Positions 26,106-31,265 of a stretch of DNA of 64,000 nucleotides are shown here, piece after piece (position 1 is the stretch's first letter; each line of letters starts with the position of its first letter). The notes beneath the pieces were generated by a model, which saw nothing but the letters and a program-made list of their open reading frames with translations, was not told the origin of the DNA and did not search any database. This DNA is from Escherichia phage T5_ev219. Made by a program: the position numbers and the translations under genes. The DNA lies in the sequence record NC_134263.1; one strand, 5' to 3'.

Positions 26106-26278
26106 TTAAATCTGTGTATACACATCCAGATGATATATTTGTATGGGCGGATGGTAGTTGGTGCTATCGATGTGAGTTATGGGAAATGGACTATAAATCT
26201 GAGGACTATGGTGTCATATATGTTGATACGGTTGAGTATGATACGTTCTTAGAAAGGGACAAAAATGGAAATAAGTAA
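26096..26278 (+). CDS. hypothetical protein (60 aa)
   Basis: ORF. Confidence 0.4.
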   Translation: MSIVKSVYTHPDDIFVWADGSWCYRCELWEMDYKSEDYGVIYVDTVEYDTFLERDKNGNK

Positions 26279-26771
26279 TACTCCAATTATTTTTCTAGAC
26301 ATTGATGGGGTGCTTAATTCTAGCATCTCCCACCATCATGCACCTGATGATGAAAAGATTTTCTTTGGAAGTGACTGGGTTTTTAAACCGCTTCTCAAGG
26401 CTTTTCAGGACTTTATTCGTCCTTCTCCAATAATGATTGTTGGGGTATCTTCATGGTTCTCTGTCAGGAATGAGATGGAGAACGTTCAGATTATGACCGG
26501 ATTAGATCTTATCGATCGTTTTCTTGGTACAACGGATTTTACTGGTGGTGGGCTATCTAGGGGTAATTCTGTTCTTCGCTTCGTTGAAAAGCATAAGCTC
26601 AAACATTGGTGTGTGCTGGATGATGCTGGTGCTATGATGTATCAGTATCCAACGGTTATAGTCAACGGTAGAACCGGAATAAATCTTCAAGATTTAAGAG
26701 CTGTTAGCTATATGTTAGAATTTAGTCCAGATCTTGAAATGTGTAAAGCCCTACAAAAATTTAAGGTGTAA
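26265..26771 (+). CDS. HAD-superfamily hydrolase (possible nucleotidase/phosphatase)
   Basis: N-terminal HAD motif I IIFLDIDGVLN; WCVLDDAG motif. Confidence 0.6.
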   Translation: MEISNTPIIFLDIDGVLNSSISHHHAPDDEKIFFGSDWVFKPLLKAFQDFIRPSPIMIVGVSSWFSVRNEMENVQIMTGLDLIDRFLGTTDFTGGGLSRGNSVLRFVEKHKLKHWCVLDDAGAMMYQYPTVIVNGRTGINLQDLRAVSYMLEFSPDLEMCKALQKFKV

Positions 26772-26773
26772 AT

Positions 26774-27202
26774 ATGTTCAATAATATACTCTCTAAAGAG
26801 GCTAACCCGATATTGGTTAATTTTTGGCGTACTCTTCCAGCCAACCTGTACAATGAGGCTATTAATGATCTGAAAATATGGTGTGAGAATAATGAAATCT
26901 CCTTTGCTTTTAAGGGTGAGATTGAAGAAGCTCCCTGTATTGGTTTAATTGTGCAGGTAGAGGATGGTCTGGAAGAGATTGTCGGCTGGAAAGAGTTGGA
27001 TGAAATGGGGTTGGTTTTTGCATTAAACTATAAGCTATTTATGCCCAATAAACACCGTATTGTTGTTAATTATAAAACCAGTGAATCTCCTGGTTTTCAA
27101 GTTAATGAACACTACGGTTGGTCTTACTCACCGGAAGAAGTAAATGATGGTATCCAAAAACTTCGTCGTTTTGGTTATCAAATTCCCGGTTTAACTGCCT
27201 AA
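26774..27202 (+). CDS. hypothetical protein, paralog A of tandem pair
   Basis: Shares F.F...PC.G...W.EL...GL..ALN..LF.P...Y.P...L.R.G..IPGL pattern with 27212..27604. Confidence 0.55.
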   Translation: MFNNILSKEANPILVNFWRTLPANLYNEAINDLKIWCENNEISFAFKGEIEEAPCIGLIVQVEDGLEEIVGWKELDEMGLVFALNYKLFMPNKHRIVVNYKTSESPGFQVNEHYGWSYSPEEVNDGIQKLRRFGYQIPGLTA

Positions 27203-27211
27203 GGGGGCACA

Positions 27212-27604
27212 ATGGAACAAGTATATTGGCGTCAGATTGATCCTAGTTTGGTGAAGCGTGCTGAGAAGCTGCTACAACGTTGGTTGGGGGTAAGACAAGC
27301 CTCCTTCACTTTTCCGGAGCAGCAAATAGACGATCCCTGTGTTGGTGTTTTTCTATCAGGCTACGCTGGGGAATGGGAATTGGATTGGAATGAATTGTCT
27401 GCTATAGGTCTAATTGTTGCCCTAAATTTCTCTTTGTTCCATCCACGTGGTTTGGCCATATGTCGTGTGCCTGATGACGGTTGTTCGCCCTATCTTTTAC
27501 AGGTGGAAGATGATATTTGGGAGTACACTCCAGATATTCTCAAAGAAGCCAAAGAACAATTAAACCGTGTTGGGATCTATGTTCCGGGGCTAAATGATAA
27601 ATGA
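27212..27604 (+). CDS. hypothetical protein, paralog B of tandem pair
   Basis: See paralog A; RBS AAGGGGG. Confidence 0.55.
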   Translation: MEQVYWRQIDPSLVKRAEKLLQRWLGVRQASFTFPEQQIDDPCVGVFLSGYAGEWELDWNELSAIGLIVALNFSLFHPRGLAICRVPDDGCSPYLLQVEDDIWEYTPDILKEAKEQLNRVGIYVPGLNDK

Positions 27605-27627
27605 TTTTTATTAGTTGACCTCTGATT

Positions 27628-27654
27628 ACCGAGTCATTTTGGCTCGGTTTTCTC
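27628..27654 (+). terminator. rho-independent terminator
   Basis: Hairpin ACCGAG-tcattttgg-CTCGGT followed by TTTTCTC. Confidence 0.65.
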
Positions 27655-27695
27655 TATGCTCAAAGACACTGATAGCACCATCCGGAAAATTTTAC

Positions 27696-27724
27696 TTGCA
27701 GGATGCCCAAAATCTTGATATAAT
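27696..27724 (+). promoter_or_regulatory. sigma70-type promoter preceding a 500-nt ORF-free leader
   Basis: TTGCAG 27696-27701, 17-bp spacer, TATAAT 27719-27724, conserved ATTTATATTGAATTGAGAGA leader. Confidence 0.5.
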
Positions 27725-28221
27725 ATTTATATTGAATTGAGAGACATTAGTAAAAATTGATTTTGCTAATTTTTCTTGTTTACAATCCGCGATACGGAAC
27801 AGTTAGGCTGCCCCATTAAGGGTTGTTTTAACTATTACTAGTGTTTATATTGCATTAGTTAATCTTCAATTAAGTGATCTGTGTACCCTGAATTCGGAAA
27901 GGTAAATCCAAACCGTGCATATTTAGCTCGTTATATAGGCAGAGTTTTATATGGGGGTGCGAACGAAAAGAGCAGCGAATGGCGGCACGTACAGTAGTCA
28001 CCTACCAATAGGATAGTGAGGACAAATAGAATCGGCTTAGCGGCCAATGACCTAGGTTCTATTCTGTATATGAGCGAAGAGAGCACAGCACTGAGATATG
28101 ATAACTTATTCATATTGTTTGATGATAATTGATGTTTACGTAAATAGTAGTAATAGTTGTTCTATTCTTTCTGAATAGTCCTAAAGAAAAGATTTCGATT
28201 AACCAACACAGGAGTATTGTT

Positions 28222-31011
28222 GTGTTTTCTATCCTCCAAGGTCACGCCGGATTTTCTCGTGATTTAGCAACAGGTATTTGGCGAGAAATCAAAGCGGAAG
28301 ATTATACCTTTGCCAAGCGATTCTCGAAAGAGCATCCAGAAGGTAAACCAGCTTCTATGCCCTTCAAATTTGATGTAATAGAAGAGCACGACCCACAAAG
28401 CCTTGCCGAAATGTTACCCCTTATGAGACGTTTAACGTCTGACCCTCATATCGTTGCGGTACGAGGTCGATGTCTTGCACCTAAAAATAATGTGCGACGT
28501 AAGAAAGGTAACTTTAATGTATCTAATCCTAGTAATATTATTGCTATGGACGTGGATGGTATCCTAGATACCGGTGGGTATGACAAATTTAATCTTGTTG
28601 GTATGGCCCGCCACATTATTAAGATGTTGAATAGTATTAGTGAGGACATGTTCCCTCTTGATGCAGGCTTTATAGCTCATGCATCGTCTTCGGCTGGGCT
28701 TAAACCAGGTATCCGAATGCACTTAATGCTAGAATCTAACGTCAAGGTAACTCAGGGTCAGCTAAAGTTCTTATTTACATCTATCAACGATAGTAGTAAG
28801 CAAAAATTTGGTTTTGATATTGCCGACCTAGCTTATTATTCATCTGTCCAGCTCCACTATTTTGCCGACCCCTTATTTAGCGATGGTATTGTTGATCCGT
28901 TTAAAGCGGAGAGTAAGCCACGTCTGGTGTATGTTAAAGGTTCGAAAGTAAATTTGCCCAATAATCTAGTTGACTATGAAACAACTAGAGGGGAGTTTAA
29001 GGAAGAGTTTTATTCTTTACTTGATCAAATTAAAGGCAAAAAGATTGCTTCTGATAAAGTAGAAGAAACCATCAGCGAGTTAGAAGAGGCTGATGATGGA
29101 GTGTATTTGCGTATTATCCCCAAACTATACCATAGAGCATTAGAGGATGGTGTTGATTTTGCATGGCTAGAACGTGAGATTAAACCAGCTTTATCCGAAT
29201 ATATTGCAACTAAAGATAACAGTCGTAATATTCAAGATTACTTTAATAACGGTCGTAAGCAGGCTCTCAAAGCGTTTGTTAATAATTCTAAACGTGAGAT
29301 TCCATTAAATCTGAAAGGTGTTCCACTTAAGAAATTAGAAGTGGATTCTCCACCAGAAGTTCCATACCTGAAGATTAACATTGTGCCCCCAAAAGGCCAT
29401 ATAACATTTGTTAAGGCAAGTCTTGGTACGGGTAAAACTACGGCAGTAACTAAATGGCTGGACGCAGGTGTTCTTCCGGGCAACTTTTTAGCAGTTACAA
29501 ATACTAGAGCACTGGTATCTTCAAATGCCAAGAAATTTAGTGCAGGACAATACGATAAGTCTGTAGATATGCTCAACTTTAAACGTGGGGCTATTGATCG
29601 TATGTCCACAACTATTCACTCTTTGCATAAGTTCAAAAGTTTTATTGGTCAAATAGACACCATTTTTATTGACGAATGTGACGCTGTAATGAATGACCTA
29701 TTATTCGCCCCTGTTGTTAAACAACGTCGCGAGTGTATTCAAGTTCTACGTGACATCCTCATGACAGCTAAAACTGTAATCTTATCCGATGGTGATATTA
29801 GTGCTGAGACTATTGAAGCATATGGTTCTCTAATTGATTTTGATAAACCGGTTGCATTTTATAATCATCATCGTAAGATGCTGTCAAAAGCTCATGCTTA
29901 TGAGTTCCCTGATGAGTCCAGTATTTGGGTTGCACTTCAAACATCTCTAGAGATGGGTGAAAAATCTATTCTAGTATCTGATTGTGGCCCTGATGAGCTG
30001 AATGAGAAGGGTATGGCACTACGTCGTAATACTGGTGCATTAGTTAAGGAAATCCATTCAAACTCCACATCTGATGTGGATATTAGACGTATTCTGGATT
30101 ACACAACTAATGAGCTAATTGATCAACAAATTGATTGCTTATTATGTAGTCCATCCGTAACGAGTGGAGTTGACTTCAACTACTTCGATAACGTATTTGT
30201 TATTACGAGAACTAGTAATCAAGCGCCAAACATGCGTTTTCAAGCAATCAGGCGCGACCGTGGTGCTCAGAATATCTATTATTTTATTGATAAATCCACT
30301 AGTGGGTTCTCCGCAGGTTCTGAACAATATAATATTGATGAAGGTTGGCTGGAGTTAGCACAGCAATTATACGCACGTCGCAGGGAGCTGGAATCTAGGA
30401 ACTATACTAGTACTTTACGTTATTACTTGCTTGATCAAGGTGCAACTATTGATATTTTCAGCGAAAGCTGGGGAACTATTGAAGGTGCTGGTAAAGAGTA
30501 CACAGAAGAGCGAATCAAAGCTATTCTACATTCAACTCCTGATTATTGTGCCCCACGTCATGCGGATGCGTATGAAGCTAAGCTACTTCTTGTTCGCTAT
30601 TATCATCTTGAGTCTATTAAAGATGTAACAGTTGAGCATGTTGAACAATATATCAAAGATAAGCCAAATGATCGAGCTGCATTCTTCCATAAGATGCACG
30701 AGATGTTCTGGGAGGATATTAAGAAGTGTTCAAATGTGACCATTAAACCATTCATAGAGGCTCTGAAAGGTAAGAAAAAGGACTTCTTCCTTAAAACAGG
30801 CCAGAGTGCGAACCCAAAATATGCAAGAATGTACCTCGGTATGATGGGTATTGGTAAGGATATGAACACTGAAAATATCGTAGACTGGTATAGAACCTAT
30901 TGTAAAATCGAGTGTATGCCAATTCCTTATAAGTTTATGACTGATGAGGAGAAACATATGCATGATGAAGCAATGTCAGAACTAGGTGCTAGAAATGACA
31001 GTGAAGAATAA
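28222..31011 (+). CDS. putative replication origin-binding protein / SF2-type helicase (929 aa)
   Basis: Walker A SLGTGKTT, Walker B IFIDECD, motif VI QAIRRDRG; N-terminal region with AMDVDG (DxD); GTG start with RBS ACAGGAG. Confidence 0.5.
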   Translation: MFSILQGHAGFSRDLATGIWREIKAEDYTFAKRFSKEHPEGKPASMPFKFDVIEEHDPQSLAEMLPLMRRLTSDPHIVAVRGRCLAPKNNVRRKKGNFNVSNPSNIIAMDVDGILDTGGYDKFNLVGMARHIIKMLNSISEDMFPLDAGFIAHASSSAGLKPGIRMHLMLESNVKVTQGQLKFLFTSINDSSKQKFGFDIADLAYYSSVQLHYFADPLFSDGIVDPFKAESKPRLVYVKGSKVNLPNNLVDYETTRGEFKEEFYSLLDQIKGKKIASDKVEETISELEEADDGVYLRIIPKLYHRALEDGVDFAWLEREIKPALSEYIATKDNSRNIQDYFNNGRKQALKAFVNNSKREIPLNLKGVPLKKLEVDSPPEVPYLKINIVPPKGHITFVKASLGTGKTTAVTKWLDAGVLPGNFLAVTNTRALVSSNAKKFSAGQYDKSVDMLNFKRGAIDRMSTTIHSLHKFKSFIGQIDTIFIDECDAVMNDLLFAPVVKQRRECIQVLRDILMTAKTVILSDGDISAETIEAYGSLIDFDKPVAFYNHHRKMLSKAHAYEFPDESSIWVALQTSLEMGEKSILVSDCGPDELNEKGMALRRNTGALVKEIHSNSTSDVDIRRILDYTTNELIDQQIDCLLCSPSVTSGVDFNYFDNVFVITRTSNQAPNMRFQAIRRDRGAQNIYYFIDKSTSGFSAGSEQYNIDEGWLELAQQLYARRRELESRNYTSTLRYYLLDQGATIDIFSESWGTIEGAGKEYTEERIKAILHSTPDYCAPRHADAYEAKLLLVRYYHLESIKDVTVEHVEQYIKDKPNDRAAFFHKMHEMFWEDIKKCSNVTIKPFIEALKGKKKDFFLKTGQSANPKYARMYLGMMGIGKDMNTENIVDWYRTYCKIECMPIPYKFMTDEEKHMHDEAMSELGARNDSEE

Positions 31012-31236: not shown

Positions 31237-31265
31237 TTGCTTTCAGGAAAATTTTTCTGTATAAT
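31237..31265 (+). promoter_or_regulatory. strong sigma70 early promoter (sequence matches phage T5 PN25 from memory)
   Basis: TTGCTT 31237-31242, 17-bp spacer, TATAAT 31260-31265, AT-rich UP tract, leader ATAAATTTGAGAGAGGAG then ATG 31297. Confidence 0.75.

Follow-up and report, generated by a model that had tools for sequence, protein, structure and literature searches.

A conserved multi-helix RNA fold between an early promoter and the D2 helicase gene of T5-like phages, a candidate structured 5' leader

The window analyzed here is a stretch of 64,000 nucleotides from Escherichia phage T5_ev219 (NC_134263.1), a T5-like phage with 99.9% identity to phage EC100 and 98.6% identity to T5. The region of interest (27605-28221) lies between an operon of T5.105-107 homologs and the gene T5.108, also named D2, and all features described below are located on the plus strand. 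The upstream operon is closed by an intrinsic terminator (27628-27654), for which the terminator scan found a 9-bp stem (27628-27648, five G-C pairs) followed by TTTTCTCT as far as 27654, and which is annotated in T5 and BF23. The next feature is a promoter of the T5 early type (27696-27724), which was read from the sequence and is annotated as a promoter in T5. It consists of the -35 element TTGCAG (27696-27701), a 17-nt spacer, and the -10 element TATAAT (27719-27724), with ...TTGAGAGA downstream, and a transcription start near 27731 is predicted from these elements. A generic sigma-70 scan overlooked this promoter because its -35 element agrees with TTGACA at just three of six positions. 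By its features, the promoter belongs to the T5 early promoters as a family (TTGC-N17-TATAATA...TTGAGAG). When the window was searched for the family pattern, eight further copies were returned, compared to 0.13 expected, and the leader promoter is absent from this output because its own spacing between the -10 element and TTGAGAG differs. All enterobacterial Demerecviridae relatives keep the arrangement TTGC-N17-TATAAT at a distance of 500-650 nt before the helicase gene.

The promoter and the GTG start codon of D2 are separated by ~490 nt without a conserved ORF. All ORFs listed between 27605 and 28221 have at most 60 aa, and with a threshold of 70 aa no ORF-free stretch of the window outside the tRNA cluster is larger than this one of 617 nt. 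In some phage records, ORFs of 38-41 aa are annotated within the leader. The 38-60-aa leader ORFs of the window lack ribosome-binding sites, and in the leader types A', B, C, D, and My1 they are missing or differ. No plus-strand terminator was found by the scan between 27655 and 28221, and none parts the promoter from the start codon. A gap of 560-900 nt is retained in 32 of 32 IMG/VR relatives with protein identities down to 55%, and Pectobacterium, Vibrio, and Aeromonas relatives likewise have a gene-poor stretch of 590-1600 nt in front of the gene. In T5 itself, the locus is situated at 59.0-59.5 kb of the 121.75-kb genome, which corresponds to 48.7% of its length. A sequence-only reading of the window had described a terminator at 27628-27654, a promoter behind it, and about 500 nt without plausible ORFs before a GTG start at 28222. 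This description holds in all its parts: the terminator is confirmed by stem and T-run in the scan and by the T5 record, the promoter by its elements at this site, by the T5 annotation, and by conservation in enterobacterial relatives, and the ORF-free stretch by the presence of ORFs of at most 60 aa only, none of which is conserved between leader types; the GTG opens an ORF of 929 aa.

This ORF is T5.108/D2 (28222-31011, GTG start), which is annotated as 'replication origin binding protein'. D2 combines an SF2 UL9-like helicase with a probably primase-like N-terminal domain. The Pfam model Herpes_ori_bp matches D2 at residues 389-533 only. The designation as origin-binding derives only from similarity of the helicase domain to UL9. 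The T5 homolog of D2 has been characterized as a bipolar helicase (PMC3632103). The N-terminal domain has no match in Pfam or among PDB sequences, a word-indexed protein search with this domain returned only two close relatives, and a single-sequence AlphaFold model of it had a pLDDT of 40, which is too low for use. In distant homologs, this domain is fused with PriCT_2, VapE, and D5 helicase modules, which are typical partners of primase domains. The D2 gene heads a replication module, in which it is followed by genes for a ligase, a DnaB-like helicase, a DnaG-like primase, Pol A, and others.

The stretch upstream of D2 is conserved among relatives. Leaders of types A and A' are ~93% identical, compared to 61-72% at third codon positions of the adjacent gene; judged by this comparison, the leader evolves under purifying selection and is more conserved than the synonymous sites of its gene. 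Between types A and B the flanks are 93-97% identical and the cores 43%; in spite of this low identity, helix order, length, and the CUUAGCGG motif are common to both cores. The leader RNA is located directly upstream of the helicase gene in all 40+ loci, and a metagenome scan yielded 10 more loci, mostly of type B. Insertions in relatives are confined to positions upstream of the promoter or between the first two hairpins, H1 and H2 (see below), and in some relatives ORFs of the size of homing endonucleases are inserted nearby. In Vibrio relatives, the long gap is kept and homology to the leader RNA is not detectable. The RNA is restricted to Demerecviridae and is fixed as the leader of one gene.

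Based on covariation, the sense strand forms a conserved multi-helix leader fold. At the 5' end, RNAalifold predicts the 16-bp hairpin H1 (27739-27777) in types A and B; a hairpin of different sequence is present at this position in types C and D. H2 (27782-27826) is a hairpin with internal loops (AUAC, a GAA bulge, and CAGU-NNN-GCUG), whose 33-nt core has 20 invariant positions across T5, Klebsiella-type, and My1-type leaders. The distance between H2 and CUUAGCGG is constant at 238-248 nt. Downstream of H2 follows a multi-helix domain of ~330 nt, which is closed by the long-range stems P1 and P2. The 5' strand of P1 (27829-27848), identified as inverted repeat I1, pairs with 28140-28159; 10 of 10 in-register pairs are 100% paired, including a double change from A-U to G-C, and My1 and L050 have a stem of 15-21 bp at the homologous place. 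P2, predicted by RNAalifold within types A and B, prolongs P1 into a near-continuous duplex of ~35 bp by pairing of 27852-27869 with 28119-28135, so that the 3' strands of both stems, assigned on the same basis as the 5' strands, occupy 28119-28159. In type A, the four variable pairs of P2 comprise three compatible ones and one broken one. The stems P1 and P2 measure 19 bp and 16 bp, respectively, in T5 and 31 bp together in type B, and the closing stem has 21 bp in L050 and type D.

The interior of the domain begins with P3 (27873-27884, partner 28083-28092), in which nine pairs are 100% paired and four of them have double changes, with swaps across types from CUGUGU/GCACAG to CUGCGU/GCGCAG and CUACAU/GUGUAG. 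The P4 sub-domain (27885-27958), predicted by RNAalifold for type A, consists of two hairpins closed by ACCCU/GGGGU, and its equivalent in type B is closed by CCCAU/AUGGG; the duplex energy at the P4 position in type A is better than that of every random window pair. The adjacent purine-rich segment (27959-27988, GCGAACGAAAAGAGCAGCGAAUGGCGGCAC) has a GC skew of +0.47 and an AT skew of +0.2 to +0.47 and is predicted to be mostly unpaired, with helices of 2 bp only. In the P5 sub-domain (27989-28069, GUACAG/CUGUAU), predicted by RNAalifold and containing the hairpins P5a (27997-28023) and P5b (28025-28063), compensatory changes are found inside type A as well as inside type B. The covarying stem of P5b has 8+4 pairs, which are 100% paired and four of which have double changes. 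It bears an invariant mini-hairpin, GGCU-UAGC-GGCC (28034-28045), with a UAGC tetraloop and a U-G closing pair. All enterobacterial leader types contain the motif CUUAGCGG between -170 and -285 relative to the start codon, Aeromonas phage TS3 has it as well, and UAGC is looped in local folds of seven of 10 types. The last hairpin of the domain, P6 (28095-28116, GAUAUGA/UCAUAUU), has AAGUGG/CCACUU and AAGGGG/CCCCUU at its position in type B.

Two hairpins are located 3' of the domain. The small invariant hairpin CUAUUC-UUUCU-GAAUAG (28162-28178) has six invariant pairs and a counterpart in type C, CUAUC-CUU-GAUAG. It is not a terminator, as a U-tract is absent. The second one is a translation-initiation hairpin (28205-28226, AACACAG:UUGUGUU) predicted by RNAalifold, with the Shine-Dalgarno sequence AGGAG (28210-28214) at the edge of the loop and the GUG start codon (28222-28224) within the 3' strand. 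Where the first base of the start codon differs between leaders, the base opposite differs with it, giving CAC/GUG in T5, CAU/AUG in type C, and CAA/UUG in L050. With 5-7 bp, this hairpin is short.

In 25 sequences from three leader types, 46 in-register pairs, which represent the helices held in register by plain MAFFT out of ~150 predicted pairs, were paired in 99.8% of cells, compared to 32-42% with the partners slid. Double compensatory changes occurred in 15 of the 46 pairs, compared to 0-2 when slid. At some helices (P5, P6) the alignment of type A with type B is out of register. The covariation score of 0.344, versus 0.03-0.07, was reached by 0 of 500 shuffles, a statistic that overstates independence because the related sequences represent only ~3-6 independent lineages; in addition, the fold was partly derived from the same sequences that were used in the covariation test. 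For H2, nine of nine pairs were 100% paired in T5, Klebsiella-type, and My1-type leaders, compared to 21-51% when slid, with five pair types at one pair. Within type A, seven compensatory, 11 one-sided compatible, and two broken pairs were counted, and within type B the respective numbers were seven, 11, and seven. G-U pairs account for 190 of 1150 cells (16.5%), and several of them are invariant. The conserved structure fits the plus strand only, because a G-U pair would become an A-C mismatch on the opposite strand. In principle, displaced single-stranded DNA could adopt such a plus-strand structure too. Folding energies were dropped as evidence because MFE z-scores do not discriminate: the leader has -2.8 on the plus strand and -1.3 on the minus strand, values between -0.6 and -3.2 were obtained for the other types, and a 500-nt coding control, with -3.1, equals the leader.

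The fold was also compared with known RNA families. In a search of the whole window against Rfam 15, tRNAs alone reached the gathering score. Between 27500 and 28350 the best matches at E <= 10 had 14-16 bits, which is noise, and the ROOL and GOLLD models were unmatched. For types B, C, D, My1, and the Aeromonas/Vibrio leaders, one sub-threshold match was obtained (28.7 bits versus a cutoff of 100), which lies in the terminator region. The covariance-model scan proposed in the sequence-only reading has assigned the leader to no described family, be it riboswitches, ribozymes, group I/II introns, ROOL/GOLLD/HEARO, 6S, tmRNA, or others, at gathering or permissive thresholds. ARAGORN found neither a tRNA nor a tmRNA at the leader. 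Within the window, CUUAGCGG and its complement are no more frequent than expected by chance, and an extended match to other transcripts was not found. The idea that H2 and P5b are duplicate binding sites was rejected, as their local alignment did not exceed that of random segment pairs in six of seven types. A lead to the anti-retron 'Rad' was rejected as well, since it concerns an unrelated protein of the tRNA region. In literature searches, a description of the leader RNA or a mapped coordinate for a T5 origin was nowhere found.

From the arrangement of these features we infer a single leader transcript with a regulatory role, a ligand, and processing by RNase III. The gap would be the template of a ~490-nt structured 5' leader RNA of the helicase and replication operon, probably with a regulatory function, an interpretation that we hold with moderate confidence. 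On the sense strand, promoter and start codon bracket the leader, which is the position of a cis-acting leader; compensatory substitutions and the constant link to the same downstream gene agree with such a leader as well. Host RNA polymerase would start at the T5 early promoter near 27731, and one transcript would run from the leader into the D2 mRNA and the replication gene cluster. This RNA would fold into H1, H2, the ~330-nt domain, the small 3' hairpin, and the start-codon hairpin, and the domain closed by the ~35 bp of P1/P2 would display the hairpin P5b with its U-G-closed UAGC tetraloop. The invariant elements H2 and UAGC may be recognized by a conserved factor, which could be a protein of phage or host or else an RNA contact. 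In this way, the leader would act in cis and set or regulate how strongly the helicase gene, and perhaps the whole operon, is expressed, and the start-codon hairpin together with a probable RNase III cut in P1/P2 would fix the amount of translatable mRNA. A ligand, an attenuator, or a convincing switch sequestering the Shine-Dalgarno sequence was not identified in leader sequence and fold.

Several known systems resemble such a leader in part. The 5' UTR of E. coli rne (~360 nt), the operators of T4 genes 32 and 43, and the leader of lambda N, which carries an RNase III site, are likewise RNAs between a promoter and a start codon. Conserved hairpins, a paired initiation region, a duplex suited for RNase III, and a replication or regulatory gene downstream are common to the T5 leader and these autoregulatory leaders. 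However, no kinship in sequence or Rfam was found for the T5 leader, and its domain, with ~330 nt and ~15 helices, is larger than phage operators. Compared to the known phage translational operators this domain is far larger, which is an observation against the reading as a leader. Processing of the leader by RNase III is possible: E. coli RNase III cuts duplexes of about two helical turns, and P1/P2, with 19-31 bp, is a near-continuous duplex in the range of ~20 bp or more. The long-range pairing of flanks into a duplex of at least about two helical turns resembles the RNase III stems of rRNA operons and T7 early mRNAs. Unlike in rRNA operons, the RNA enclosed by P1/P2 is no known stable RNA, and the cleavage site is putative.

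The sequence-only reading had presented the region as a candidate replication origin and/or a long structured leader. The structured leader is supported by compensatory helices, sequence constraint, and a transcript path free of terminators, whereas the origin found no positive support in the sequence; we consider it rather unlikely that the region is an origin, be it primed by the promoter transcript or based on DNA elements. In the transcript version, the early transcript would form a persistent RNA-DNA hybrid priming the leading strand, for which the fold would be needed; in the other version, the helicase/primase-like protein would recognize DNA elements, for example the CTTAGCGG hairpin once the DNA is unwound. 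Origins of T5 have been reported near the center of the genome (10.1101/866236), where this locus is found (48.7%), and multiple internal origins have been reported as well (PMC3632103). The region immediately precedes the gene of a putative initiator and its replication module, it has a strong promoter, and the relatives of the N-terminal domain of D2 are fused to primase-associated modules. AT-rich stretches with 18-27% GC lie on either side of the purine-rich core, namely 18% at 27720-27779, where promoter and H1 are also located, and 23-27% at 28110-28199, which also contains strands of P1/P2. Size and layout are akin to those of the ColE1 pre-primer, which has ~550 nt. With ColE1 RNA II, for which the RNA fold is essential, and with T4 ori(uvsY)/ori(34) and the T7 primary origins, the region shares a strong promoter, a predicted folded non-coding transcript of several hundred nucleotides at a replication locus, and AT-rich DNA nearby. 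However, no antisense promoter was found by the promoter scan on the minus strand between 27000 and 28800, so that a counterpart of the promoter of the antisense RNA I of ColE1 is missing, and the predicted transcript continues into a gene of 929 codons. Similarly, the neighboring gene shares helicase motifs with UL9 of HSV, whose origins oriS and oriL also form hairpins, but UL9-type box repeats around an AT spacer are not present and the UL9 DNA-binding domain is unmatched in D2. Origin binding by D2 is putative; the label goes back to similarity of helicase motifs. Iterons, which the sequence-only reading had suggested to look for, and tandem repeats are missing from every leader type; the repeats that do occur in the leader measure 8-25 nt, have two copies each, do not exceed chance level, and are not conserved between types, and the search for inverted repeats led to I1, which is the P1 stem. 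Strand-specific helices with many G-U pairs over ~300 nt are unlike an origin in duplex DNA, the region passes directly into a ribosome-binding site and a gene, and GC skew has no inflection at the locus. A strand bias reported in a recombitron study points to dominant unidirectional replication of T5 from one end (PMC10055335). It is still more doubtful that the folded leader is the primary origin of T5, with a structured transcript that initiates a hybrid or is passed to the D2 protein. If this were true, D2 would recognize the invariant hairpins H2 and UAGC, the transcript would perhaps be trimmed by RNase III, and the two core 'alleles' would be origin-specificity types. The T5 origin would then be ColE1-RNA-II-like and dependent on RNA structure, and to our knowledge no such origin is known in virulent tailed phages.

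The core of ~290-330 nt might also be a separate stable non-coding RNA that is excised by RNase III at P1/P2, in the manner of rRNA precursors, and acts in trans, with host or phage machinery as possible targets or as a counter-defense decoy, while its position in the leader would merely lend it a promoter. The domain is self-contained and closed by a duplex of 19-31 bp, and its size is typical for large structured non-coding RNAs and not for protein operators. Furthermore, two deeply diverged core 'alleles' (43% identity) with shared architecture and loop are found in flanks of 93-97% identity, a pattern that fits a module under diversifying or exchange pressure. ROOL and GOLLD are likewise large, phage-borne, and rich in helices, but their Rfam models are unmatched even at E <= 10 and the T5 RNA is fixed before one gene. 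The domain was never met apart from the D2 gene, and the invariant loop is not complementary to other sites of the window beyond chance. H2 and the start-codon hairpin, which lie outside the domain, are equally conserved, which argues for a function of the whole leader. We regard a trans-acting RNA as a rather unlikely explanation. That the gap is without function, as a spacer, a decayed gene, or a remnant of a homing endonuclease, or that it encodes unannotated small proteins, is highly improbable. Such explanations could refer to the 38-41-aa ORFs annotated in some records, to the insertions of homing-endonuclease size near the locus in some relatives, and to MFE z-scores that are no better than those of coding sequence. 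However, these ORFs are not conserved between types and ribosome-binding sites are missing, the leader is more conserved than the synonymous sites of the gene and its helices are kept by compensatory changes, and the gap lasts across the whole family despite compact genomes.

A structured leader at this place concerns a classical model phage and its relatives; phages of the T5 type are in wide use for therapy and biocontrol work. In ~440 deposited genomes, the leader stretch is blank or filled with spurious ORFs; for annotators, small ORF calls in this stretch are unwise, and the name 'origin binding protein' is no proof of an adjacent origin. Public RNA-seq and long-read DNA data are available for the Tequintavirus Bas33 (PRJEB101990, cited in PMC13250531). 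If the interpretation as a structured 5' leader is correct, the RNA would represent a new family which, with ~490 nt, is large for bacteria and has clear invariant recognition elements. The leader would thus provide a handle on the control of the onset of replication gene expression in T5 and on the question of where and how T5 replication starts.

The region upstream of the helicase gene (T5.108/D2 homologue) shares 99.9% identity with Escherichia phage EC100 and 98.6% with T5, where it lies at 58.9-59.5 kb of 121.75 kb between T5.107 and T5.108, the latter annotated as a 'putative replication origin binding protein'; judged by its sequence, the window comes from a T5-like phage (Tequintavirus). 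On the + strand, an intrinsic terminator at 27628-27654 (terminator scan and T5 annotation) is followed by a promoter with its -35 TTGCAG at 27696 and its -10 TATAAT at 27719 (sequence and T5 annotation), then by the leader start TTGAGAGA and a stretch, reaching to the GTG start at 28222, in which no ORF is longer than 60 aa. Terminator, promoter with leader, ORF-free stretch and GTG start, all proposed in the sequence-only reading, were thereby confirmed. With ORFs counted from 70 aa, no other ORF-free stretch of the window is as large, the tRNA cluster aside. Elsewhere, a stretch of ~400 nt (11101-11500) holds no ORF of at least 50 aa on either strand, and at 9313-9386 on the - strand ARAGORN reports a tRNA-Ser whose anticodon, ACT, is unusual (Rfam tRNA score 37.9 bits). 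The promoter shows T5 early-family features; a pattern search for this family returned eight other copies in the window (0.13 expected), among them the PN25 homologue at 31237, and did not return the leader promoter because its spacing to TTGAGAG differs. The leader has ~490 nt at this promoter, in contrast to ~25 nt at the other early-family promoters.

An ORF-free gap of 560-900 nt upstream of the helicase gene is found in all 32 IMG/VR relatives, down to 55% protein identity, and the same gap is kept in 10 metagenomic loci. It measures ~590 nt in Pectobacterium phage My1, 637 nt in Vibrio PG07 and 1590 nt in Aeromonas TS3, and in Vibrio Quinn and D145 the equivalent stretch holds only tiny, doubtful ORFs. 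Every enterobacterial member has a TTGC-N17-TATAAT promoter 500-650 nt upstream of the start codon. The leader is matched by 440 phage records, nearly all of them without annotation at this place, and a search of E. coli genomes returned no match. No small ORF in the leader was found to be conserved between leader types.

These sequence types comprise type A (T5 and the window), the commonest type A' (~93% identical to A), type C of the Klebsiella Sugarland-like phages, and types B, D, My1-like and L050. Between A and A', the whole leader is ~93% identical, whereas third codon positions are only 61-72% identical; because leader identity exceeds that of third codon positions, the comparison indicates that the leader is under purifying selection. 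Between A and B, the flanks are 93-97% identical, but the central 318 alignment columns only 43%, with 58-69% identity at third codon positions of the adjacent gene. The core, i.e. the domain closed by helices P1 and P2, thus occurs in deeply diverged versions of equal length. The two versions (A/A' versus B) lie within near-identical flanks at 27839-28140, a cassette-like pattern that suggests exchange or diversifying pressure. A recombination junction is located near 28190-28250 in one relative (L015). In three others (L013, L020 and L034), an insertion of ~97 nt (AGTGAAGCTGACAAGGGATTTACGG...CTTTACGAAAAAGTTTTTTCTTG) with a TTTTTCTT duplication on its flanks and its own 8-bp hairpin lies between helices H1 and H2, equivalent to window ~27778; it may be a small mobile insert and is evidently tolerated there. 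Six loci (L004, L014, L015, L027, L047 and L051) carry a 168-aa ORF, the size of a homing endonuclease, between the T5.107 homologue and the leader (~27605-27690 equivalent), and this insert brings a second promoter copy and the start of H1. The folded domain and the helicase gene are never separated by insertions.

RNAalifold predicted the same helix order at nearly the same positions for A and B separately. On the + strand, H1 (27739-27777) and H2 (27782-27826) precede a domain closed by P1 (27829-27848 with 28140-28159) and P2 (27852-27869 with 28119-28135), whose interior consists of P3, a P4 sub-domain, a purine-rich unpaired stretch, a P5 sub-domain (P5a, P5b) and P6. A small hairpin (28162-28178) and a start-codon hairpin (28205-28226) follow; in the latter, the Shine-Dalgarno sequence lies at the edge of the loop and the GUG start is part of the 3' strand. 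In My1 and L050, the P1-homologous position is taken by a closing stem of 15-21 bp.

To assess this fold, 25 distinct sequences of types A, A' and B were aligned with plain MAFFT, which kept 46 pairs in register. Paired cells amounted to 99.8%, versus 32-42% with partners slid by 1-3 columns; 15 pairs were changed on both sides (versus 0-2), and the covariation score was 0.344 (versus 0.03-0.07). None of 500 shuffles reached the observed percentage of paired cells, the count of cells changed on both sides or the covariation score. Compensatory changes occur in P3 (CUGUGU/GCACAG to CUGCGU/GCGCAG and CUACAU/GUGUAG), P1 (AACUAUUAC/GUAAUAGUU to AACUGUUAC/GUAACAGUU) and P6 (GAUAUGA/UCAUAUU to AAGUGG/CCACUU and AAGGGG/CCCCUU), and within types, 18/20 variable pairs in A and 18/25 in B are compensatory or wobble-compatible. 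MFE z-scores carry no weight either way, since a coding control reaches an equal score. G-U pairs account for 190 of 1150 tested cells (16.5%) and several are invariant; many substitutions follow the order G-C, G-U, A-U. Because G-U pairs would be A-C mismatches on the complementary strand, the selected structure is assigned to the + strand, which is read from the conserved promoter and is the sense strand of the helicase gene. RNA is the simplest carrier of this structure, displaced + strand DNA being a formal alternative.

Conservation is also found at single elements. In the 33-nt core of H2, 20 positions do not vary among T5, type C and My1-like phages, a group in which the helicase proteins share only 67-74% identity, and all nine H2 pairs are intact there, one of them in five forms. 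P5b holds the invariant GGCUUAGCGGCC, a mini-hairpin in which a U-G pair closes a UAGC tetraloop, and its mini-stem covaries (GGCU/GGCC to GACU/GGUC in My1). All enterobacterial types contain CUUAGCGG; it lies 170-285 nt upstream of the start codon, and its distance downstream of H2 is constant at 238-248 nt. A capped hairpin with the same tetraloop also occurs in the Aeromonas phage gap. In this phage (vB_AdhS_TS3, locus L041, 18-1609), ~1.6 kb upstream of the helicase gene contain no ORF of at least 56 aa and three UUAGCGG motifs, one of them capping a 15-bp hairpin with the U-G-closed UAGC tetraloop. At the start codon, the first base and its pairing partner covary (CAC/GUG in T5, CAU/AUG in type C, CAA/UUG in L050).

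The 929-aa protein encoded downstream has a T5 homologue that was characterised as a bipolar helicase, D2 (PMC3632103). The protein matches Pfam Herpes_ori_bp over the helicase core only (residues 389-533), and its N-terminal 390 residues (window 28222-29391) have no match in Pfam or PDB sequence searches. Invariant DxD, SSSAG..H and D motifs are present in this domain, and its distant homologues occur in fusions with PriCT_2, VapE-like and D5-type helicase modules; a single-sequence AlphaFold model, at pLDDT 40, could not be used. This N-terminal part is probably primase-like, in a divergent form, and the protein may therefore join a primase to a helicase instead of being an origin binder of the UL9 type. 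Immediately upstream, three genes (26265-27604) encode a HAD_SAK_2 protein, whose HAD domain belongs to the 'Swiss Army Knife RNA repair' type, and two DUF7415 paralogues; T5 has a Sir2-like gene further upstream. The downstream replication module comprises a split NAD-ligase, a DnaB-like helicase, a DnaG-like primase, Pol A, a D10-type helicase, an SbcCD-like nuclease and a flap nuclease.

Taken as a whole, the region very probably acts as a functional, structured sense-strand RNA. Conservation and covariation contradict the notion that it has no function or encodes small proteins, which is highly improbable. The sequence-only reading had proposed a replication origin and/or a structured leader, of which the leader is supported and the origin gained no support. 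An origin is unlikely, even though the locus, at 48.7% of the genome, fits reported central origins (10.1101/866236), adjoins a putative initiator gene and has AT-rich DNA flanking its purine-rich core. The layout also resembles that of ColE1 RNA II, but no antisense promoter was found at the leader. The suggested iteron search revealed no repeated binding sites in the leader, there is no skew inflection, origin binding by the 929-aa protein has never been shown, and a recombitron study infers dominant unidirectional T5 replication from one genome end (PMC10055335). A trans-acting RNA excised from the leader would be in keeping with the self-contained domain and the two deep core 'alleles'; it is equally doubtful, however, as the domain is never found away from the helicase gene and elements outside it are just as conserved.

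The preferred reading is a cis-acting structured, regulatory leader of the helicase gene, for which the chances are about even. In this function, the early promoter would fire and the leader would fold, the fold setting the amount of translatable helicase mRNA. Contributions would come from the start-codon hairpin, from a factor that binds the invariant H2 and UAGC elements, and from RNase III, which probably cleaves the P1/P2 duplex. Substrates of E. coli RNase III include duplexes of two helical turns, and the P1/P2 duplex can be compared with the lambda N leader, T7 early RNAs and rRNA stems. Such a cut would release the core, and the remaining mRNA would begin ~65-80 nt before the start codon. 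The Rfam covariance-model scan matched no family to any of the leader types tested, and no description of this RNA was found in Rfam or the searchable literature. The leader is best placed among the structured 5' leader RNAs as a new family. For a phage leader it is unusually large and elaborate, and it belongs to a textbook phage.
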